From contig JBKHHD010000002.1 in NCBI GenBank assembly GCA_046539325.1, positions 53,425 through 117,424 on the forward strand: a stretch of DNA of 64,000 bases. The letters are read 5' to 3'. The translations under genes were made by a program, and so were the position numbers. Below the pieces are notes generated by a model. That model ran no database searches and had not been told where the DNA came from. It saw nothing but the letters and a program-made list of their open reading frames with translations. Of this stretch, positions 839-48,887 are shown one piece after another (within the stretch, counting starts at the first letter, position 1; each line of letters starts with the position of its first letter). The DNA comes from Candidatus Aenigmatarchaeota archaeon. GTDB lineage: Archaea > Aenigmatarchaeota > Aenigmatarchaeia > PWEA01.

Positions 839-2481
839 CTCACTCTGAATTACTTTACGCTGTTAAGGCGTGCCGGCGTAGTTGAGCCTTGGACGTTCTG
901 ACGTCCAGCGATGACCAAAATTCCAGGCACGAACAAATGATGAGGAAGGGAGTTCAATCTCTTCTGATGTAGGAAACCCGAGAATGAAACCGAGAGGTTT
1001 CAGTAGCCAAATGTAGTTGGTGTGACGCGAGGACTAGTTTACTCTCTTACCAATTCCGGTTGATCCTGCCGGAGGCTACCGCTATCGGGATTCGATTTAG
1101 CCATGCGAGCCGAGGGTGGTTTATCCGCCCGGCGGACTGCTCAGTAACACGTAGTCAACCTCCCCTCAGGACGAGTATAACCCCGGGAAACTGGGACTAA
1201 TACTCGATAGGAAAGGGATACTGGAATGTTCCCTTTCTGAAATGTTCCGACGCCTGAGGATGGGACTGCGGTGGATTAGGTCGTTGGGGGTGTAACGGAC
1301 CTCCAAGCCTATAATCCATACGGGCGTTGAGAGACGGAGCCCGGAGACGGACTCTGAGACACGAGTCCGGGCCCTACGGGGCGCAGCAGGCACGAAACTT
1401 TTACAATGCGTGAAAGCGCGATAAAGGGATCCCGAGCGCCTTGGCATTGCCAAGGCTTTTTTGGAGTGTAAAAAGCTCCACGAATAAGGGGTGGGAAAAA
1501 CGGGTGCCAGCCGCCGCGGTAATACCCGTGCCCCAAGTGGTGACCACGATTATTGGGCCTAAAGCGTCCGTAGCCGGCCGGATGGGTCCTCAGTGAAATC
1601 CTGCGCTAAAACGTAGGACTTGCCGGGGAAACTATTCGGCTTGGGACCGGGAGAGGTCGGGGCTATTCCTGGGGTAGCGGTAAAATGCTGTAATCCCAGG
1701 AAGAGCGCCTGTGGCGAAAGCGCCCGGCTGGAACGGCTCCGACGGTGAGGGACGAAAGCCAGGGTAGCGAAGGGGATTAGATACCCCCGTAGTCCAGGCC
1801 GTTAACGATGCCCGTTTGGTGTAGCATCTCCTACGTGGAGGCGCTGTGCCGTAGCGTAGGTGTTAAGCGGGCCGCCTGGGGAGTACGTCCGCAAGGATGA
1901 AACTTAAGGGAATTGGCGGGGAAGCACCACAAGCGGTGGAGGCTGCGGTTTAATTGGATTCAACGCCAGGAACGTTACCAGCGCTGACAGCATGATGACG
2001 GTCCGCTTGAAGAGCGTACCTGAAGCGCTGAGAGGTGTTGCATGGCCATCGTCAGCTCGTACTGTGAAGCGTCCGGTTAAGTCCGGTAACGAGCAAGACC
2101 CACATCCCTAGTTGCTATCGTGTCCTTCGGGACGCGAGCACTCTAGGGAGACCGCCTCCGACAAGGGGGAGGAAGGTGTGGGCGACGGTAGGTCTGTATG
2201 GCCCGAATGCGCTGGGCTACACGCGGCCTACAATGGTCGGGGCAGCGGGTTGCGACTCCGAGAGGAGGAGCTAATCCCAAAACCCGGCCTTAGTTCGAAT
2301 CGAGGGCTGAAACCCGCCCTCGTGAAGCCGGAATCGCTAGTAAGCGAGGGTCACTATCTCTCGCTGAATACGTCCCTGCTTCTTACACACACCGCCCGTC
2401 AAGCCATCCGAGTGGAGCCTTGATGAGGCTTGGGAAATTTTCTCAGGTCTAATCAGGGCTCCGCAAGGAGGGCTAAGTCGT

Positions 2482-3295
2482 AAATTAATTGCGACCTCGG
2501 ACCGAAAGGTTCGAGAAAACCCGGCTGTATGCTGGAAACTCCACTCATACCAGGCTGCCGGAATTGTCCTAAGCTTTTTATCAAAAGCACGGGCAATGTA
2601 AGGTAGAGAGGTCTGGTCGTTGTGGACAATCAGCAGGGAAGCTCACTACTCTGACCTGAAAAGGTGAGGTATAGCCCCTCAGAGACTGCACGCCGGCCCC
2701 TAACGGAGCTGATTGGATGTCACAAAGCTACCTCAAGGGAATACTTCACGATGCCACGGAAAGGAAGTACACCTACCGAATTTCACAAAAGAACAAAGAT
2801 TTCATTGAAAAGCTGGCCGAAATGATTCGAGATCTGGGCAAAAAAGCCTGGATTTAAGAAGAAGGCAACCGAGGAATATACGTAGTGGAATTTAGTAAGA
2901 GTGGTCTCAAAAAGCAAGAAATCGAAACAAGACAAGAAAAAAGAGACTATATCCGTGGCTACTTCGACGCTGAAGGAAGCGTTCCAAGGAGTCCTGAAGT
3001 GCGACCTTACATTTACTTCGCACAACAGGACAAAAAAGACCTAAAGAAAGTGAAGAAATTCATTGAGGAGTTTTAAATTGAAACAGGCAAACTCCACAGA
3101 CCCAGTAAGGAGTCTGATCCAGATTACTGGAGATTTTACATCTCCACAAAGGATCACAAAAAATTTGCCAGAGAAATAGGCTCTTGGCATCCAAAGAAAA
3201 ATCAGCTGCTGAGGGAGATGAGACAGTCCACGCCTCGATGCGAGTCGGGGTGACACTTTCAAAGTGTCCGAACACCATTATGGTGTGAGCATGTG
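2482..3295 (+). mobile_element. Group I intron in 16S rRNA at E. coli position 1498 (814 nt)
   Basis: Splits AAGTCGT|AACAAGG; P1 GTCGT/GCGAC with U-G wobble; terminal G; P3 CCGGC/GCCGG, P4 TGCTG/CAGCA, P7 GACTG/CAGTC. Confidence 0.93.
2717..3253 (+). pseudogene. Decayed LAGLIDADG homing endonuclease in intron P8 loop
   Basis: One frame with YLKGILHDAT and YIRGYFDAEGS motifs, broken by TAA at 2855 and 3074. Confidence 0.85.
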
Positions 3296-3336
<41 letters not shown>

Positions 3337-3385
3337 AATTCATACCAACTACAGGCTAAAATTTCGGGTTTCCTAAAGAACATAC

Positions 3386-3594
3386 GGGCCCGTGGTCTAA
3401 TGGCAATGCAGAACCGTGTTCCGATTTACGGTTTGCACCGGAATGACGTCGCCCTTGCAAGGCGAAGACTGTGGGTTCAAAAGAGACCACTTTGGAATGA
3501 AAACACTTTACTGAAAACGGAGTTTTCGTAAAGATCCAAGCTTCGTTTGAAATATTTTCCAAAGGGTTTTCTGGAATTCCCACCGGGTCCACCA
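3386..3594 (+). tRNA. tRNA-Ala(TGC) in ITS with D-loop (~3406-3443) and T-loop (3482-3577) introns, CCA encoded
   Basis: GGGCCCG/CGGGTCC acceptor, TCGCC-CT-TGC-AA-GGCGA; BHB at T-loop restores TTCAAAT. Confidence 0.9.
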
Positions 3595-3786
3595 GTACTG
3601 TTCGCGATTTTAGAAAGTTTTAAATAACTTCACTGTTACAGGACTTTTGAACCTGATACAGGCCTGATAAGATGACTGGAAAGTAAGACTTGAAGGATTA
3701 GTTGCTTACTTCAGTCTGTTCTTTTTCGTTTTGTTGTATAGTTTTAATGTGCAGCTCTCTACCGCAGGTAGAGGGTGAAGAGTGAT

Positions 3787-3866
3787 AAGGGACGATGAAT
3801 TGAGTTTTGTGAACACCCTTTGATCCCGAGAGGGAGATGATAGTAAGACGATCACAAGAGTCCCTT
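3787..3866 (+). ncRNA. Box C/D guide RNA in the 16S-23S ITS (predicted targets 23S U2552 and U1920)
   Basis: Terminal stem AAGGGAC/GTCCCTT, two K-turn motifs, 10- and 11-nt perfect complements to 23S obeying the D+5 rule. Confidence 0.85.
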
Positions 3867-3967
3867 GGATGAGCTGTTATACGTCAAGTCTTGGAAACTT
3901 ATGTTTCCAGTTTGAAATCCGAGAGGATTTCAAGACCCACCAGCCAACTAGGCTGGAATGGGTCTAT

Positions 3968-6922
<2,955 letters not shown>

Positions 6923-7067
6923 CCATGGACGCATTCCAGCCTGGGCTAAAGGTGGATCTTGAAATCAAGGAACACAAACTTAGAAACAGAGGTTTCCAAG
7001 ACTTGGCGTATAGCAGCTGAAGCTCTTTTCTCATAAGATTTAAATTGTTAGAATCAAATGTTCCTAC

Positions 7068-7523
7068 TGTGGTGAGCTGGAGAGGGACCACCGGGATAGT
7101 TTGGATGAGGTTGTTTTCCTTCACAGGAAACACCCTTGTATTCCCGGAGGAAGCTCCTCCCACCCGTTGTGCTGTAAAAGTGCAACGAGGCCCAGGCTCG
7201 CAAGAGTCCGTCCTGAGAGGGAACGGAACAGGGAACAGAAACGATACCCCCGCGCTGGAGCGTTGAAAGCTGAGAAGGCACGGAGGGATGGAACGTACCC
7301 TGATCTGGGTGGTGCAAGACCAAATAGGCTCCGGGAAATGGATGTGCCTTGCACGTCGGTCTCTTGGAGCGGGTAGGTCGCTATTTGGAGTCCGTGAGGG
7401 CTTCAAACTTGGAAGCATCTGCTTCCGAGAAGATGAATGTCCCGAAGACCTGACATGGACGCGGACTTCGTCCACGTCGTTTTTGGGTCCGAACAGAAGG
7501 AGGGCTACTCCCAGCACACCACA
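7068..7523 (+). ncRNA. rnpB: RNase P RNA
   Basis: P4 halves GAGGAAGCTCCTCCCAC and AACAGAAGGAGGGCTAC, AGAAAC and GGTGCAAG motifs, terminal pairing TGTGGTG/CACCACA, TATA at ~7039. Confidence 0.9.
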
Positions 7524-8723: not shown

Positions 8724-9770
8724 ATGGAAAGTGAGAAGGAGTACATCAAGCCCGATATTGTAACATCTTCTGTCAGGAATGTTGAGCCGCTTAAGGAGAA
8801 GGACAAGGTTCCAGTTCTGAAGAAGGATGGAAGTCCGGAGCCTGGAGACGTAGCCGTTGCGAAGGTTGTCGAGGAAGGCGGAAGCTACGACGAGGCAGAG
8901 CTGGAGGGCGGTGAAATGGTAAAGCTGGAAGAGGGTGATTTAATTGTGGGCGTCCTGGGCGTGAGAAAAGCTGTCCGTGGCTTTGCCTCAAGAATACCTG
9001 AAAAACTGGAAAGGGGGGATCCCATCGACTTCGTCTCGTCAGGAGGCGTGATGGCGGAATGTTTGAGCTCGCCTGAAGAGCTCGGTAAGCCCTACCGTCT
9101 GGAGTTCAGAGGCTTCGTTGCAAACGATACAGGTAAGGTAAATATATCCGAATACTCGATAGATCTTCAGGACAAACTAAAGGTGGACTGTCCTGTAGTC
9201 CTTGTTGCAAGCTCTAGAATGGACGCAGGTAAGACCACGTTATGTGCAGGGCTTATTGAAAAGTTCTCTGAAAGAGGTAAAAAGGTCGGAGCTGTAAAAC
9301 TCACAGGGGTTACAAGGCAGAGGGACAACCTCAGCATGAAAGAAGCCGGGGCCATCTGCTCCTACGAGTTTACGGACTGCGGGTTACCTTCTTCGACATG
9401 CAGTGCTGAAAAAGCTGTGAAGGCTAGCAAGGGGCTTATAAGCGAAGCTGCCGAAGGCGCGGACATCGTAGTCGCAGAGTTGGGTGCAGGTCTACTTTCC
9501 TCCTACAATGTTCTGGAAGTTTTGAAGGACGGAGAGATAAAGGAAGCATGTAGCAGCCTTATATTCATGTCCATAGATCCTGTGGGCGCCTACGGAGGCT
9601 TGAGAATACTTAAGGACCATAGCTACAGGCCTGATGTAATCTCCGGGCCCACTACTGATACGGATGCAGGAAGGGAAAACATACGGAGGTTTACTGAAGT
9701 ACCTGTCTTAAACGGGATACACGACATAGACAAAATATCCCAAATCATTTTCGAAAAGGTGTTTTCGTGA
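8724..9770 (+). CDS. DUF1611-like P-loop protein
   Basis: SSRMDAGKTT Walker A, KLTG and FTDCGLPS motifs. Confidence 0.7.
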   Translation: MESEKEYIKPDIVTSSVRNVEPLKEKDKVPVLKKDGSPEPGDVAVAKVVEEGGSYDEAELEGGEMVKLEEGDLIVGVLGVRKAVRGFASRIPEKLERGDPIDFVSSGGVMAECLSSPEELGKPYRLEFRGFVANDTGKVNISEYSIDLQDKLKVDCPVVLVASSRMDAGKTTLCAGLIEKFSERGKKVGAVKLTGVTRQRDNLSMKEAGAICSYEFTDCGLPSSTCSAEKAVKASKGLISEAAEGADIVVAELGAGLLSSYNVLEVLKDGEIKEACSSLIFMSIDPVGAYGGLRILKDHSYRPDVISGPTTDTDAGRENIRRFTEVPVLNGIHDIDKISQIIFEKVFS

Positions 9771-10720
9771 GAAAGGTCGCTGTTCTCTGGGATGAAAGGT
9801 ATATTTCTGAGGATGAAGTTCTCTTTGAAGACGAGAAGCTGAAGAAGACTATGGAATACTTCTGCAAACAAGGAGAAAGAAAAGGGCTGAAGGTCTACGT
9901 TTCGCACTTTTCTTCCTACGACAAAGGTAAGCTTGAACAGGCCTATACTTTTGATGGTCAGTGGAAAGAGGTAAAAAACATAGAGATAGATCTGGTCTTT
10001 GACAAGTTCTACTTCAACGAAGAGACGAAGGAGCTGAAGTACAGGATTGATGAAGAGGTAGGTATATTCAACCAGCCCGAGTTCGAGGAGTTCTGCAAGG
10101 ACAAGTTCAAAGTCTACTGCACCTTCGCTGGTTACGTGCCCAAGACTGTCAGGGCAAATAAAAACGACCTCGATAAACTTCTCGACGAGTTGATAACGGA
10201 AAATATAGTGGTGAAACCACGCTTCGGATCTGGAGGTGAGTCCGTTAAGATCGTGTCTAAGGACAAGGTTTCAAAAGCTCTGGAAGGCTTTGACGACGAA
10301 GAAATAAAGGAAGGTAATGTACTTCTACAGGAGTTCGTAGACTCCTCAAGAGGCATTCCATCCCTCGATGTAAACGGAGTCCATGATCTGCGAATTGTAC
10401 TTGTAGACGGAAAGCCCTCCTATTCCTTTGTAAGGACTCCTGAAAGGGGAAAAATAAGCAACGTGAGCAGAGGCGGAAACATGGAAACTGTTTCCCTGGA
10501 AAACATCCCTGAGAAAACAATGGACGTGGTAAAAGAAATCGACAAAGTGATGTCAGATTACGATGACCGGATTTACTCCATAGACTTCCTGTTCAGTGAA
10601 AGTGGGGAACCTTTCGTAGTGGAACTCAATTCAAAGCCCGGGATAAAGTTCAACGGAGAAGAAGTTACAAAGAGGAAGAAGAAGTTCATCCAGGATATAA
10701 TTCAAGCACTGAGTTCCTAG
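9767..10720 (+). CDS. ATP-grasp ligase (RimK/YheCD-like)
   Basis: KPRFGSGG, QEFVD, DLR, SNVSRGG, ELNSKPG. Confidence 0.85.
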   Translation: MRKVAVLWDERYISEDEVLFEDEKLKKTMEYFCKQGERKGLKVYVSHFSSYDKGKLEQAYTFDGQWKEVKNIEIDLVFDKFYFNEETKELKYRIDEEVGIFNQPEFEEFCKDKFKVYCTFAGYVPKTVRANKNDLDKLLDELITENIVVKPRFGSGGESVKIVSKDKVSKALEGFDDEEIKEGNVLLQEFVDSSRGIPSLDVNGVHDLRIVLVDGKPSYSFVRTPERGKISNVSRGGNMETVSLENIPEKTMDVVKEIDKVMSDYDDRIYSIDFLFSESGEPFVVELNSKPGIKFNGEEVTKRKKKFIQDIIQALSS

Positions 10721-11601
10721 ACCTCCTGGGCGGAAAGGGCCTTCTGTTTAACGAAGGTTACCATCTCCTCGGGTATATCGACACCCACCACTTCCGAAGT
10801 CTCCTCAGTTATTCCAGGAGAAGCGTTTATCTCAACTATAAAGCCTTCCTCGTCGGAGCTTATTATATCAACGCCGCAGATATCAAAGCCCGTGAGCTTT
10901 GAGGCCTTTACTGCCATCTCCCTCATCCACTCTGGTGCATCGAACTCCTCGCGGTTACCGCCTCTGGAGATGTTAGAACGCCACTCTTTCTCCAAGCCTA
11001 TCCTCTTGTAGGAGTAGGTTTCTTCTCCTATCACCAAGATCCTTATATCTTCGCCGGGGTTCTCTATAAAGTCCTGTAAGCATATATCCTGTTCAAACAC
11101 CTCCAATGTATCGATTATAGGGCGAAGCTCTGATTCGTCCTTGGCTCTCATTATTCCCTTTCCACCGTAGCCGGAAATGAGCTTTATAGTTACAGGATAG
11201 CCTATGTCCTTCGCGGCATCGGTCGCTGCCTCAGTGGAAAGCGTATATATGGACCTCGGAACCTTCACCTCGCTTCCACTGAGCTCTTTGACCGTGGAGA
11301 ACTTGTTCGAGGATATTGAAAAGGAATCAGAATCCATGTGTACGTAGGAGTCCGATTCGTTGAGTATCTCTATTAACTGCTCCGAAAACAGAAGGTCCTC
11401 CCCCGAAAGCCTTGGAAAGACAACATCAAAGTCTGTGAGTTCCGTGTTTTTGTACATAACCCTTGGACTTCCATCGAATCTATATTCGTACCTCACACCT
11501 TCTATCGGAACTGCAAGCACGCTTTCAAAGTACTCCTCTGCCTTCTCGATGATGTAAGGATGCTGCTCAAGGAACGGAGTATATATTATTGCAAACTTCA
11601 T
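10717..11601 (-). CDS. RimK/LysX-family ATP-grasp ligase
   Basis: GYGGKG, DIR, WRSNISRGG, GVD, EINASPG all intact. Confidence 0.9.
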   Translation of the reverse strand: MKFAIIYTPFLEQHPYIIEKAEEYFESVLAVPIEGVRYEYRFDGSPRVMYKNTELTDFDVVFPRLSGEDLLFSEQLIEILNESDSYVHMDSDSFSISSNKFSTVKELSGSEVKVPRSIYTLSTEAATDAAKDIGYPVTIKLISGYGGKGIMRAKDESELRPIIDTLEVFEQDICLQDFIENPGEDIRILVIGEETYSYKRIGLEKEWRSNISRGGNREEFDAPEWMREMAVKASKLTGFDICGVDIISSDEEGFIVEINASPGITEETSEVVGVDIPEEMVTFVKQKALSAQEV

Positions 11602-12437
11602 CTTTCCTCACCTTCTCCTTCAGGCTTTAACATATCAGCTATCTTTTCGAAACTGTTCTTCCCTGAAACCTTCATGAACCTCTCCACATCAGGATTCATG
11701 TGCATATCAACAACCTTGGAATCAACCAGCCTTACCGAGCAGAACTGGGAGCCTATCGCTTCGGCAGCGTTTTCCACAATTTCAGCAACATCTGAGGGAG
11801 GTTTATGGTATTTCTCGCTGGAGCTATCCCTCTTTGGTGACTTTCTCCATGAGTCGCTGCTTATCTTCGTCGAAATGATGTCACCGTCTATGTAAAGACA
11901 GTCGTAAACTTCACCCTCAATGAACTCCTGAACAACCATATAGTTCTTTCCGTGCTCAAGGCTCTCGGAAAAGGCCTCTATGCTGTCTGGATCCTCTGTC
12001 TTCATTATATCCTTCCTTTCAAAGCCCTCGAATTTCTTGCAGACAACATCACCGTCAAACTCCTTCTTGACACCGTTTATTGACTTTTCTGAAGACACGA
12101 CAAAGGTCTTCGGGACAGGTATATTCTTCTCAGTAAGCACTTTGAAGAGGTATGGCTTCTTCGCTATTATGTAGTAGGAAGTACCGTCCATAACCGTGTT
12201 TATATCCTTCTCCATTATACTTTCAAGAAATATTCTTGTGAAAGTCAGGGCCTTCGGAGTAGGTCTTATGAAAAGCGCATCGTAGTCCTCGACCCTTCTT
12301 CCACCGACGTAAGAAACAACTTCCTCCTGGTTCGCATCTATCTTTACGTCTTCTATAGAGTAGTTGTGAAGCTCCTCGAAGTAGTCCTCGAACTTCTCCC
12401 CCAACGACTGATCCTCAGTTATCGTCAATAAATTCAT
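11598..12437 (-). CDS. Degenerate RimK-like ATP-grasp protein
   Basis: IPVPKT, VQEFIEG and WRK retained; glycine loop and ExN motif lost. Confidence 0.75.
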   Translation of the reverse strand: MNLLTITEDQSLGEKFEDYFEELHNYSIEDVKIDANQEEVVSYVGGRRVEDYDALFIRPTPKALTFTRIFLESIMEKDINTVMDGTSYYIIAKKPYLFKVLTEKNIPVPKTFVVSSEKSINGVKKEFDGDVVCKKFEGFERKDIMKTEDPDSIEAFSESLEHGKNYMVVQEFIEGEVYDCLYIDGDIISTKISSDSWRKSPKRDSSSEKYHKPPSDVAEIVENAAEAIGSQFCSVRLVDSKVVDMHMNPDVERFMKVSGKNSFEKIADMLKPEGEGEER

Positions 12438-13992
12438 CTAAACCCCCCTCTTCGTCTTCCTCCTCCGGAACCCAAATCCTCCTGACTTTTTCCTCCGACC
12501 TCCAGTCCTCGGCGAACTTGCTTACGGAGCTTGGTATAACCTCCTTCAGTATGTTCCCCTTTCTTGCTATCTTTGAAAGCTGGACCTCCAAACTCTTTGA
12601 AAGCTTGTCGTAGAGCTTCGGATGTGAGTATACAAGGCCTTCCTTCAACCTCCAGTAGGCCGTGGTTCCTTTCGGAGCAAGCGGTATATAGCCCCTGGAC
12701 TTATCGTACTCCTTCATTGCCTCCTGCATGTCACTGTAGCTTACGTAGTAGACCCCTCCGCTCTTTGAGCTCGGATCCATGACAAGGATCTCGTCGCCTT
12801 CAACACCCAAACATAGAACGTAGTGGCCTGTGGTCGCATCAGGGAATATGACAGGCTTCATGAAGTGTAGTACAACCAAAGCGCCATCGTTCAGCCAGAC
12901 CTTGAGCTCCCTCTTCAGGTTGCTTATCTCCTCGTATGAAATGTAGCTTGCATAGACCTCGCCGTTTGTAAGGCTTTCAACTGAATCAGCAAGATCCTCA
13001 CCCTCCGTTCCTCCGTCCAGCTTTGTACCTGCTTCCTCGCCTATCTCTTCCTGACTCACGTCGTATCCGAAGATCGCTAGAGCCATTTCTGCCGAAGCAG
13101 GCCCGCAGTACGCGGGATTCTGCGCCCGAAAGTAGTCGGTTACTTCGTCCAACGTCTCCACATCGGCCTTAGTCCTTTTGAAGTAAACCTCTCCGTCCAT
13201 GGCCTCGCTGTTAGGTACAAACATGAAGTAGCCCGAGTCCGTGGAAATCGTAGTTCCGAACTTAGTTATATCACGTATCTCACCGGACTCTTCCTTGAAC
13301 TTCACCTTCCTTCCCTTCTTAAACATATTCGAGCTCTTGAGGTAGAATCCGGCGGCGTAGTTGACCACAAGATCCTTGAATCCAAAGAAAAGTATCAACG
13401 CGACCACGAAGACAATGGCATAGGCTGCAGCCTTTAGCGTCTCCTCCAGAAGGTAGGACGAAACGCCTGCCTGTACAACTGCCATCTGTACCACAAGGAC
13501 GTAGAGGAATATCCTGAATACCTTAAGTATTATGTCCACGGCCCTTGGGCTCAGGCCAAAGTCCTCTGTAAACTCACCCATGTCTATGGCCTCGAAGAAC
13601 CTTCTAAGGAGGTCCATCACCAGGTTTACGACTATGAAACCAAGTACTATTATCAGAACCGTGGATATAAGGGTTGGAAGGTTGTCAAGTGTTTGTACAA
13701 TTATATTGTTGGTCATGGGTGCATTGAGGAAAAGCAGGGCGATGAGTATAACAAATATAAGGGCTATGTACTCCACTATCTTCGACGGCTCTGACTTCCT
13801 TTTCTTGATACTTTCAACTGCATCCTCCCCAGAAGTCCTCCTCATAGTCACATGCCGCGAAAGCTTTGAGATAAGCTTGGTTAGAAAGATACCGACCAAA
13901 AGGATTAGTATAGTACCTATTATCCTCCCTTCAGTAGGCTCAAGGAAGAAATCTACAAGTGCGCCAAAAGAATTTTCCAACATTGTAATCAT
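12415..13992 (-). CDS. MscS-family membrane domain fused to a C39-like cysteine peptidase
   Basis: Multiple TMs, FKDLVVNYAAG and MscS beta-domain, then QNPAYCGPAS, GHYV and MDP (Cys-His-Asp). Confidence 0.85.
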   Translation of the reverse strand: MITMLENSFGALVDFFLEPTEGRIIGTILILLVGIFLTKLISKLSRHVTMRRTSGEDAVESIKKRKSEPSKIVEYIALIFVILIALLFLNAPMTNNIIVQTLDNLPTLISTVLIIVLGFIVVNLVMDLLRRFFEAIDMGEFTEDFGLSPRAVDIILKVFRIFLYVLVVQMAVVQAGVSSYLLEETLKAAAYAIVFVVALILFFGFKDLVVNYAAGFYLKSSNMFKKGRKVKFKEESGEIRDITKFGTTISTDSGYFMFVPNSEAMDGEVYFKRTKADVETLDEVTDYFRAQNPAYCGPASAEMALAIFGYDVSQEEIGEEAGTKLDGGTEGEDLADSVESLTNGEVYASYISYEEISNLKRELKVWLNDGALVVLHFMKPVIFPDATTGHYVLCLGVEGDEILVMDPSSKSGGVYYVSYSDMQEAMKEYDKSRGYIPLAPKGTTAYWRLKEGLVYSHPKLYDKLSKSLEVQLSKIARKGNILKEVIPSSVSKFAEDWRSEEKVRRIWVPEEEDEEGGLDEFIDDN

Positions 13993-19623: not shown

Positions 19624-19765
19624 GCCGGGGTAGCGAAGCCAGGTCCACCGCGCCAGCTTGGAGCTTTCGACTGAAAAGCTGGTGGGCGTCAAGGGGCCAA
19701 AGGACGTAGTCGAAGACTACGTCGTTCCAACGAAGCCCGCGTGGGTTCAAATCCCACCCCCGGCG
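19624..19765 (+). tRNA. tRNA-Ser(GGA) with 37/38 intron (19664-19676) and variable-arm intron (~19693-19733)
   Basis: GCCGGGG/CCCCGGC acceptor, CCAGC-TT-GGA-G..A-GCTGG, G discriminator. Confidence 0.88.
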
Positions 19766-40398: not shown

Positions 40399-40514
40399 GG
40401 CTGGCGGCCAAAGCGGAGGGGCAACTCCCGTACCCATCCGAACACGGAAGAAAAGTCCTCCAGCGATTTGGTCAGTATCCTCAATCCGAGGAGAACTCCA
40501 GGACGCTGCCAGCC
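40399..40514 (+). rRNA. rrf: 5S rRNA (unlinked from 16S-23S)
   Basis: GGCTGGC/GCCAGCC helix I, CCCGTACCCATCCGAACACGGAAG core. Confidence 0.92.
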
Positions 40515-40899: not shown

Positions 40900-41019
40900 G
40901 GGTCCGTAGCTCAGCCTGGCAGAGCACTGGGCTTTTAACTTAATATGTTAAAAGAGCTAGACGTTATGTCGATGATGAAAGAAACCCAGGAGTCGCGGGT
41001 TCAAATCCCGTCGGACCCA
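40900..41019 (+). tRNA. tRNA-Lys(TTT) with 37/38 intron (40938-40983)
   Basis: CTGGG-CT-TTT-A..A-CCCAG. Confidence 0.92.
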
Positions 41020-48783: not shown

Positions 48784-48887
48784 GGGTCCGTAGCTCAGTT
48801 GGCAGAGCGTCAGGCTCTTAACGTTTGGGGCTAACGTCCTGGAGGAAAGAAACCTGAAAGTCGCGGGTTCAAATCCCGTCGGACCCA
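48784..48887 (+). tRNA. tRNA-Lys(CTT) with 37/38 intron (48821-48851)
   Basis: TCAGG-CT-CTT-A..A-CCTGA. Confidence 0.92.

Follow-up and report, generated by a model that had tools for sequence, protein, structure and literature searches.

An operon of halophilic archaea that encodes an MscS-like membrane protein with a papain-like domain, a degenerate RimK paralogue and an intact RimK-type ligase

We analysed a window of 64,000 nucleotides from a Candidatus Aenigmatarchaeota archaeon (contig JBKHHD010000002.1 of assembly GCA_046539325.1), whose genome comprises 715 kb in 10 contigs and is 91% complete. The subject of this report is an operon of three genes on the minus strand of this window (Table 1). 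The first gene encodes a fusion protein, in which an MscS-like membrane part is followed by a papain-like domain, a helical extension and an acidic tail. The second encodes a catalytically degenerate paralogue of RimK, and the third an intact RimK-type ligase. The fusion gene overlaps the gene of the degenerate (dead) paralogue by 23 nt, and the latter overlaps the rimK-type gene by 4 nt. Our analysis established this architecture, the pseudo-enzyme state of the paralogue throughout its family, the conservation of the operon and a predicted docking of both ligases on the fusion protein.

The membrane part of the fusion protein belongs to the MscS family (PF00924 / PF05552), because the conserved transmembrane (TM) helix, TM3b and the beta domain are all present. 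Pfam matched MS_channel_1st_1 at residues 95-137 (30.6 bits against a cut-off of 22) and MS_channel_2nd (PF00924) at residues 207-264 (28.2 bits against 20.2). Residues 108-270 were aligned by phmmer to residues 31-176 of E. coli MscS, and residues 95-274 of the structural model matched MscS chains with a Z of about 12 in VIA-align. Of the five predicted TM helices, the last three correspond to TM1-TM3 of MscS and the two N-terminal ones are extra. The cytoplasmic alpha-beta domain and the C-terminal barrel, which form the vestibule of MscS, are absent; Pfam found no match to the third (alpha-beta) domain of MscS in the fusion protein, and residues 278-443 are modelled as the papain-like domain instead. 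Hydropathy and the positive-inside rule place the N-terminus outside and the C-terminus inside, with 9 and 10 Lys/Arg residues in the loops at 41-75 and 206-270, respectively, and 0 in the outside loops. This predicted topology suggests that the C-terminal half, including the peptidase domain, is cytoplasmic and thus in the same compartment as the ligases. The family shares an invariant stretch, F202 ... K206 D207 L208 N211 G215, and position 203, which is aligned to the gate residue L109 of MscS, is aromatic in every full-length row of the alignment.

The papain-like domain was identified by Pfam as Peptidase_C39_2 (PF13529, residues 290-407, E 5.6e-12) and Peptidase_C39 (PF03412, residues 289-424, E 2.6e-6), and the Phytochelatin family matched below its cut-off (23.6 vs 24.9 bits). 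In the AlphaFold2 model of the fusion protein, the mean predicted local distance difference test (pLDDT) was 72.9, and residues 290-445 reached 80-93. VIA-align matched this domain to the pseudomurein endoisopeptidase PeiR (Z 19.1, root-mean-square deviation 2.5, 150 aligned residues), to the phytochelatin-synthase-like protein Alr0975 (Z 17.6) and to the C39 domains of ComA and PCAT1 (Z 15-16.5), where rows within 1 Z unit count as ties and the PeiR, phytochelatin-synthase-like and C39 subfamilies are not separable. Foldseek gave matches in agreement with these. The alignments to solved papain-like structures cover 130-157 residues at just 16-23% identity. Judged from its residues and its model, the window protein has the papain-like fold with the Cys, His, Gln and Asp of the C39 / C39_2 families. 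The arrangement is not that of a C39 exporter, in which the domain is N-terminal on an ABC exporter and cleaves double-Gly leaders: here the domain is C-terminal to the MscS-like part, and Pfam found no ABC domain in the fusion protein or in the five neighbours scanned. Of the 64 rows of orthologues, 39 have all four residues Q-C-H-D, 20 lack Cys and 4 lack His alone, and one fragment could not be scored. D406 is unchanged in all scored orthologues.

The third gene of the operon encodes a member of the RimK family. It matched RimK (PF08443) with E 7.9e-33 and TIGR00768 with 161 bits (cut-off 143.4), and its ATP-grasp residues are intact. Among solved structures, E. coli RimK is closest (chains 5zct and 4iwx, E about 1e-26). 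The protein scores below the equivalog cut-offs of MptN, LysX, the S6 ligase and CofF, and the equivalog PRK10446 gave 108.9 bits against a cut-off of 331. The second gene is clearly homologous to RimK, with matches below the cut-offs to the NCBIfam models MptN (E 2e-17) and rimK_fam (E 2.5e-15), and its catalytic residues are not intact. We aligned 61 RimK orthologues with 62 orthologues of the second gene. The RimK orthologues keep K140, the Gly loop (G144, G146, G147, G149), R187, D245 and E257 in 100% of cases, R208-S-N210 in 98-100%, G214-G215 in 93-100% and N259 in 98%. In the second gene, the Gly loop, R208-S-N210 and G214-G215 are lost, and R187 is replaced by D. K remains at position 140 in 48% and N at position 259 in 42% (the window protein has H there); R stands in place of D245 in 42%, and D in place of E257 in 85%. 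Because catalytic positions are degraded across all these orthologues, the second gene product is, as judged from sequence, a family-wide pseudo-enzyme. According to passages of PMC10092738, residues R64, R189 and N262 of Pseudomonas RimK contact a bound poly-Glu chain. In the alignment, their counterparts R64, R187 and N259 are kept in the active ligase. Another RimK-family gene lies elsewhere in the same genome (G000:C1:29846-30283, minus strand; an open reading frame (ORF) of 299 aa; PF08443 E 1.7e-11).

Between the papain-like domain and the acidic tail lies the conserved helical extension, in which W447, R448, Y455, Y461, K466, E469, R477 and W507 are invariant. In the monomer model this extension had a pLDDT of 49-57, its helices at 458-500 were weak, and disorder followed after residue 500. 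We then predicted a complex of three chains, namely the dead ligase, RimK and residues 275-525 of the fusion protein, the last being the scored partner. The ipSAE scores were 0.91, 0.87 and 0.91, compared with 0.00 for each of 3 controls; at least 96% of the contacts were shared between runs, and the pLDDT of the partner chain was at least 79 (80-83). The score was lost when RimK was replaced. The predicted interface spans residues 441-483. In it, the invariant K466 would contact residues 86, 100 and 227-229 of the dead paralogue, beside the invariant G229, and the invariant R477 would contact residues 90, 235-236 and 238 of RimK, the last being the invariant G238. G229 and G238 occupy the same alignment column, suggesting that the docking helix lies on the pseudo-two-fold surface of a heterodimer. 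A pseudo-symmetric surface under one helix would therefore give a rationale for keeping the dead paralogue. No solved structure was matched by sequence to the docking segment, so recall of a known complex by the predictor is unlikely. The prediction supports the view that the ligase pair is physically coupled to the membrane protein.

The operon is well conserved. We found 135 homologues of the fusion protein at E<=1e-3 and 0.55-1.75 times its length, and the best 120 of the 135 are nearly all 490-535 aa long. Among the matches listed, those with names are generic entries ('mechanosensitive ion channel' or 'C39 family peptidase') from Nanohaloarchaea. In a genome scan, 61 of 63 related loci had the fusion gene, the dead RimK gene and the RimK gene in succession on the same strand. 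Of the other two, L044 is cut off by the end of its contig inside the fusion gene, and L060, a record titled Woesearchaeota, has just a RimK-like gene of 29% identity, which lies on the other strand. Since the same three genes keep the same order in nearly all loci, the operon is far beyond chance. In the Nanohaloarchaeota, the phylum of Nanohaloarchaea M3_22 (G210), the C-terminal half of the fusion protein is present in 64 of 70 genomes, counted irrespective of completeness. The dead paralogue is present in 65 of these genomes, one of which has the paralogue alone; the other 5 also lack the fusion. A profile of the C-terminal half was searched against 1.84 billion representative proteins and gave 103 matches at E<=1e-3, 62 of them at E<=1e-10. 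Of these 62, 45 are 436-544 aa long and carry the domain in their C-terminal half; the 17 shorter ones are probably fragments. Beyond the 62, only generic C39-like proteins were matched (E>1e-8). The C-terminal domain is thus essentially restricted to this fusion.

In the window's own phylum, the fusion was found in 7 of 201 sampled genomes, all from one genus out of 119; the records of this genus are titled Aenigmatarchaeota metagenome-assembled genomes (MAGs). In a quick maximum-likelihood tree of 58 of the 64 rows (6 fragments under 450 aa were dropped), this genus was grouped with a set of Asbonarchaeaceae, Nanoanaerosalina and QJJ sequences (20 rows, SH-aLRT 100), although the tree is unrooted and does not show the donor. 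Near-universal presence in one phylum and presence in a single genus of another suggest either that the operon passed from one halophilic DPANN lineage to another or that the phylum assignment is doubtful. Two further observations were made. One member of the window's genus (L064 = G001:C1:30770-32227) has a fusion protein just 44-45% identical, a long branch (1.42) and a dead triad (E-A-N-D); the fusion proteins of the other members are 77-94% identical, with the triad intact. In addition, L069 is a full archaeal operon on a contig of a MAG titled Colwellia polaris, a bacterium, and its placement is probably a binning error.

An earlier note on this DNA, made from the sequence alone, had described three overlapping genes, MscS membrane and beta domains ending in a papain-like domain with Q, C, H and D, and a degenerate ATP-grasp next to an intact RimK-type ligase. 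The gene layout, the Pfam matches with Q291, C296, H390 and D406, and the residue conservation among the orthologues of both ligases all agree with this description. The linkage of the fusion to both ATP-grasp genes, which the note had proposed to examine in other genomes, is found in those genomes too, and in the structure prediction that it had proposed for the ligase pair, the pair is placed on the docking segment. The docking segment itself, the physical coupling of the ligase pair to the membrane protein, the additional convergent ligase genes and the occurrence of the operon in nearly all Nanohaloarchaeota did not appear in that note.

Table 1. Positions in the window of the operon, the parts of the fusion protein and the convergent genes
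Feature	Position	Strand	Content or basis
Fusion gene	12415..13992	-	525 aa: MscS-like membrane part, papain/C39-like domain, docking helices, acidic tail
Five predicted TM helices, residues 1-215	13348..13992	-	hydropathy segments and positive-inside counts
TM3b and MscS beta domain, residues 207-271	13180..13374	-	PF00924 over cut-off
Papain-like (C39 / phytochelatin-synthase / PeiR-like) domain, predicted cytoplasmic, residues 278-443	12664..13161	-	Pfam, Foldseek, VIA-align
Catalytic codon Q291	13120-13122	-	
Catalytic codon C296	13105-13107	-	
Catalytic codon H390	12823-12825	-	
Catalytic codon D406	12775-12777	-	
Conserved helical extension, residues 441-507, predicted docking site for the ligase pair	12472..12672	-	invariant columns and complex prediction
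Acidic tail, disordered, residues 508-525	12418..12471	-	pLDDT about 34
RimK paralogue, catalytically degenerate (pseudo-ligase)	11598..12437	-	279 aa
Intact RimK-family alpha-L-glutamate-type ligase	10717..11601	-	294 aa
Convergent two-gene unit, lineage-variable	8724..10720	+	P-loop protein and third ATP-grasp ligase
P-loop protein	8724-9770	+	weak MobB/CbiA P-loop matches; DUF1611-like from DUF1611 clusters among Atlas neighbours
Third ATP-grasp ligase	9767-10720	+	ATPgrasp_ST, GSH-S and RimK matches

The genes around the operon vary with lineage. In Nanohaloarchaeota the usual order is trkA and trkH (on the opposite strand), the gene of aIF2-gamma, the fusion gene, the dead ligase gene and the RimK gene, followed by a variable set. 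The K+ uptake genes lie upstream of the fusion gene in 41 (trkH) and 34 (trkA) of 63 loci. The aIF2-gamma gene stands between trkAH and the fusion gene in 47 loci, and an S6e gene is upstream in 26. The variable downstream set consists of enzymes that form or cleave amide bonds on acidic amino acids. Its members are a third ATP-grasp ligase in 29 of 63 loci (1-3 copies), a DUF1611-like P-loop gene in 23 (both in 5), a member of the glutamate-cysteine-ligase family GCS2 in 12, an AstE/AspA deacylase in 9, and also a long RimK-like protein. None of these is constant, and 16 of 63 loci lack accessory downstream genes. We considered whether the AstE/AspA deacylase stands in for a dead Cys peptidase and rejected this idea, since the gene also accompanies loci with an intact triad. 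In the window this slot is occupied by the convergent two-gene unit, in which the third ATP-grasp gene and the RimK gene share 4 nt at their stop codons; no PDB match by sequence was found for the P-loop protein. The slot, filled in other lineages by GCS2, AstE/AspA or as many as three ATP-grasp paralogues in tandem, looks like a hotspot of glutamate-amide enzymes. Three loci (L017, L023 and L070) carry an ordinary second MscS-like gene, 22-25% identical to the fusion, between trkH and the aIF2-gamma gene, about 2 kb upstream of the fusion gene and on the opposite strand.

The window's own locus has an rRNA operon and RNase P RNA directly upstream and the S12-S7-EF2-EF1alpha genes directly downstream. 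The 16S and 23S rRNA genes and, at once after them, the RNase P RNA (7072-7519) occupy positions 1053-7519, and the 5S rRNA lies at 40400-40514, 33 kb from the other rRNA genes. Three tRNA matches (19624-19765, 40900-41019 and 48784-48887) span 104-142 nt and probably contain introns, because this is well above the length of a mature tRNA.

We infer the substrate, the coupling to tension and the physiological role of the complex as follows. The reading that we prefer, though we hold it tentatively and give it somewhat less than an even chance, is that the operon encodes a membrane-tethered peptide-ligase complex, which likely controls the glutamate or oligo-glutamate pool with the osmotic or tension state of the cell. 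The fusion protein would descend from an MscS mechanosensitive channel, keeping TM helices and the beta domain, and the cytoplasmic alpha-beta domain would have been replaced by a papain-like amidase domain with the helical docking segment after it. This segment would bind a heterodimer in which an active RimK-type ATP-grasp ligase is paired with the dead paralogue, the latter serving as an adaptor. Directly beneath the membrane protein, the ligase would then use ATP to join glutamate, or a similar acidic residue, to a carboxylate acceptor, and where the triad is intact, the Cys peptidase domain could also trim or turn over the product there. Glutamate is the counter-ion of K+, and the role of the complex in salt-in halophiles could be to control this glutamate or oligo-glutamate pool. 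Support for the osmotic link is indirect and comes from the MscS ancestry, from glutamate as the counter-ion of K+, from glutamate exporters of the MscS type and from the Rlo system of Pseudomonas as an analogue. That MscS-type channels act as glutamate exporters is described in the abstracts of PMC6110860 and PMC12541555. The upstream position of the K+ uptake genes trkH and trkA in many loci also counts in favour of this reading. A further form of this reading, which we regard as unlikely, is that the mechanosensitive scaffold is the regulatory subunit of the ligase, so that tension, passed through the beta domain and the docking helix, would set the polymerisation or release of glutamate. 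The system would then be a hallmark of Nanohaloarchaeota that spread to another halophilic DPANN genus.

Several points weigh against a membrane-tethered ligase complex under osmotic control. First, G101, G104 and G108 of E. coli MscS correspond to F195, A198 and the invariant F202 of the fusion protein, and the Gly/Ala-rich TM3a is thus absent. Because this packing pattern of the pore helix is lost, channel activity is in doubt, and the fusion protein may no longer gate or conduct. Second, 24 of the 63 orthologues that could be scored, spread over several clades, lack the Cys or His of the triad and still keep the operon. Peptidase activity thus appears not to be part of the invariant core, and since these dead-triad forms all keep the operon, the papain-like domain would have a role beyond catalysis. 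Third, the distal acceptor-binding residues S7, R8 and S14 of RimK are Y7, G8 and H14 in this family, and therefore the acceptor need not be a poly-Glu chain. Fourth, the proximity of trkAH may be plain synteny in small genomes. Finally, the complex score is a model's own confidence and comes from a three-chain job unlike the calibration set; among the 80 solved complexes of that set 58 attained the mark, as did 2 of the 110 mismatched pairs, and these counts apply only roughly to our prediction with its own alignments and three chains. The earlier note had proposed a tension-linked write/erase module with possible osmotic control. The architecture and the linkage of the genes agree with such a module, but strict writing and erasing does not hold as the conserved core, given the broken triads. 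As for osmotic control, RloABC, as described in passages of PMC11957051, offers an analogue, while a coupling to tension may be suggested at most.

A different possibility is synthesis and release: the docked ligases, helped by the variable ligases and deacylases encoded nearby, would build a small acidic peptide or glutamyl metabolite, which the papain-like domain would process and the MscS-like pore would export. The downstream genes, variable yet always those of amide-bond enzymes (third ATP-grasp, DUF1611-like, GCS2, AstE/AspA), fit this idea, and so do the best fold matches, the isopeptidase PeiR and the gamma-Glu-Cys transpeptidase-like Alr0975, since both have non-standard peptide bonds as their targets. 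Export of glutamate by MscS-family channels, described in the abstract of PMC6110860, also fits, with MscCG as the precedent. However, accessory genes that vary by lineage, and that a quarter or so of the loci lack, imply no single product, the pore helix is atypical, and no exported product or precursor gene was identified. We consider this possibility improbable.

Somewhat less probable still is that a protein tail is glutamylated, with the ligase pair adding Glu to the acidic tail of the fusion protein, or to a nearby translation protein, and the Cys peptidase removing it. Passages of PMC11957051 describe RimK and LysX-type enzymes that modify acidic C-termini. The disordered acidic tail of the fusion protein comes straight after the docking helices, and genes of S6e, whose C-terminus is acidic, and of aIF2-gamma are found upstream, as mentioned above. 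Among the 63 orthologues, however, the length of the tail beyond the last Trp ranges over 3-27 residues, and the tail ends with N in 21 of them, with E in 16, with K in 6 and with another residue (S, D, R, Q, T, I or G) in 20, so that there is no defined acceptor. Because of this variation in length and last residue, we rejected glutamylation of its own tail as the leading idea. In addition, the tail is not confidently placed in the predicted complex, whose interface stops at residue 483, and the putative eraser is dead in more than a third of the scorable orthologues. Translation genes are common neighbours in any genome this small. The model for this possibility is ribosomal protein bS6, to which RimK adds Glu and from which RimB removes it, but bS6 is a bacterial protein that archaea are not known to have.

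The MscS-derived part might also be an anchor only, which oligomerises and tethers the enzymes after mechanosensing was lost, and the task might then be non-osmotic, for example envelope or lipid-linked modification. In line with this, the fusion protein has lost both the Gly/Ala pattern of the pore helix and the alpha-beta cage domain. Canonical MscS genes are kept separately in the same genome, where the paralogue of 301 aa has its full length and a Gly/Ala-rich pore helix, and also in three complete Nanohaloarchaeota genomes. Yet K206, D207, L208, N211 and G215, invariant family-wide, are the counterparts of MscS residues in TM3b and the beta domain that couple gating, and the gate position 203 is always aromatic. 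Since such constraint would be unexpected in a passive anchor, we disfavour this explanation and regard it as distinctly unlikely. A graspetide-like pathway, raised by the earlier note, in which ATP-grasp enzymes would cyclise a ribosomal precursor and the C39-like domain would cut the leader before export, draws on the leader-cleaving C39 domains of PCAT exporters and is very hard to sustain, because both ligases are of the RimK family (the MvdC-type model TIGR04185 matched the dead paralogue alone, E 0.0011, 18 bits vs 425), no conserved small ORF was found in the 25 largest clusters of the 63 neighbourhoods and no pairing of an MvdC/MvdD-type maturase with a precursor peptide was seen (ORFs of at least 60 aa scanned in both cases), Pfam found no ABC transporter among the six window proteins scanned, and in many orthologues the peptidase is dead.

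The component families of the operon are known; what is new is their combination, the docking segment and the pseudo-ligase adaptor. In line with the earlier note, which did not know the architecture as a characterised system, no published description of the operon was found in the literature searched, which did not extend to the supplementary Asbonarchaeaceae gene-family tables of one preprint. A bioRxiv preprint (10.1101/2023.07.03.547478) describes novel families beside an MscS gene in a different lineage, and the words 'RimK' and 'glutamate' do not occur in the passages of it that were available. Nanohaloarchaeota are tiny obligate symbionts with genomes of about 1 Mb and few lineage-specific conserved systems. 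Because the operon is kept in almost all genomes of this phylum and its C-terminal domain is essentially unseen elsewhere, it is likely central to the biology of these archaea. Its presence in a single genus of another phylum from shared hypersaline habitats suggests a transferable adaptation to high salt. If the proposed complex exists, the fusion protein would be without known precedent among MscS-derived proteins in carrying an enzyme and recruiting a ligase, and the pair would be a clear case of a dead paralogue acting as adaptor in an ATP-grasp heterodimer. The operon would also provide a counterpart in archaea to the RimK and Rlo modules of bacteria, which are poorly understood; one of these modules is already tied to hypo-osmotic survival. 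If tension indeed regulates the ligase, this would be a mechano-enzymatic osmotic buffer that polymerises or releases the glutamate counter-ion pool under osmotic stress.

The operon can be compared with several known systems. With PCAT/ComA, Alr0975 and PeiR, the fusion protein shares the papain-like fold and the Gln-Cys...His...Asp arrangement, and with PCAT also the fusion of this domain to a membrane protein of the transport type, although there is neither an ABC transporter nor a double-Gly substrate here. The TM1-TM3 and beta-domain core is common to MscS, MscCG and the fusion protein. Unlike these channels, the fusion protein has an enzyme domain and a docking segment in place of the alpha-beta domain and C-terminal barrel, has two additional N-terminal TM helices and has lost the Gly/Ala pore pattern.

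The RimK-RimB(-RimA) system of Pseudomonas is similar in that a RimK-family ligase is paired with a peptidase: passages of PMC11957051 and PMC10092738 describe RimK as co-transcribed with, and bound to, a peptidase partner that counteracts or modulates the ligase, and the catalytic residues and the three poly-Glu contacts of RimK are retained here. The systems differ in the partner, which is a soluble retropepsin-like aspartic protease there and a Cys papain-like domain on a membrane protein here, in the dead RimK paralogue that belongs to the module here, and in the distal acceptor-binding residues mentioned above. Pfam found no retropepsin-like aspartic peptidase among the six window proteins scanned, and PF05618 was not searched in the rest of the genome. 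RloABC of Pseudomonas combines, according to passages of PMC11957051, a RimK-like ligase with a retropepsin that cleaves polyglutamate and a 7TM protein whose papain-fold domain is inactive. Mutants in which all three RloA peptidases are lacking fail under hypo-osmotic stress. In both systems an integral membrane protein with a papain-fold domain is encoded beside a RimK-related ligase. The membrane part of our fusion protein is MscS-derived with 5 TM helices rather than 7TM, and no sequence relationship is detectable beyond the superfamily level. The papain-fold domain is always inactive in RloB, as far as those passages describe it, whereas in our family the triad is intact in most rows and the domain is predicted to be cytoplasmic. 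As in the inactive transglutaminase domain of RloB, a role beyond catalysis is likewise suggested for the papain-like domain of the fusion protein.

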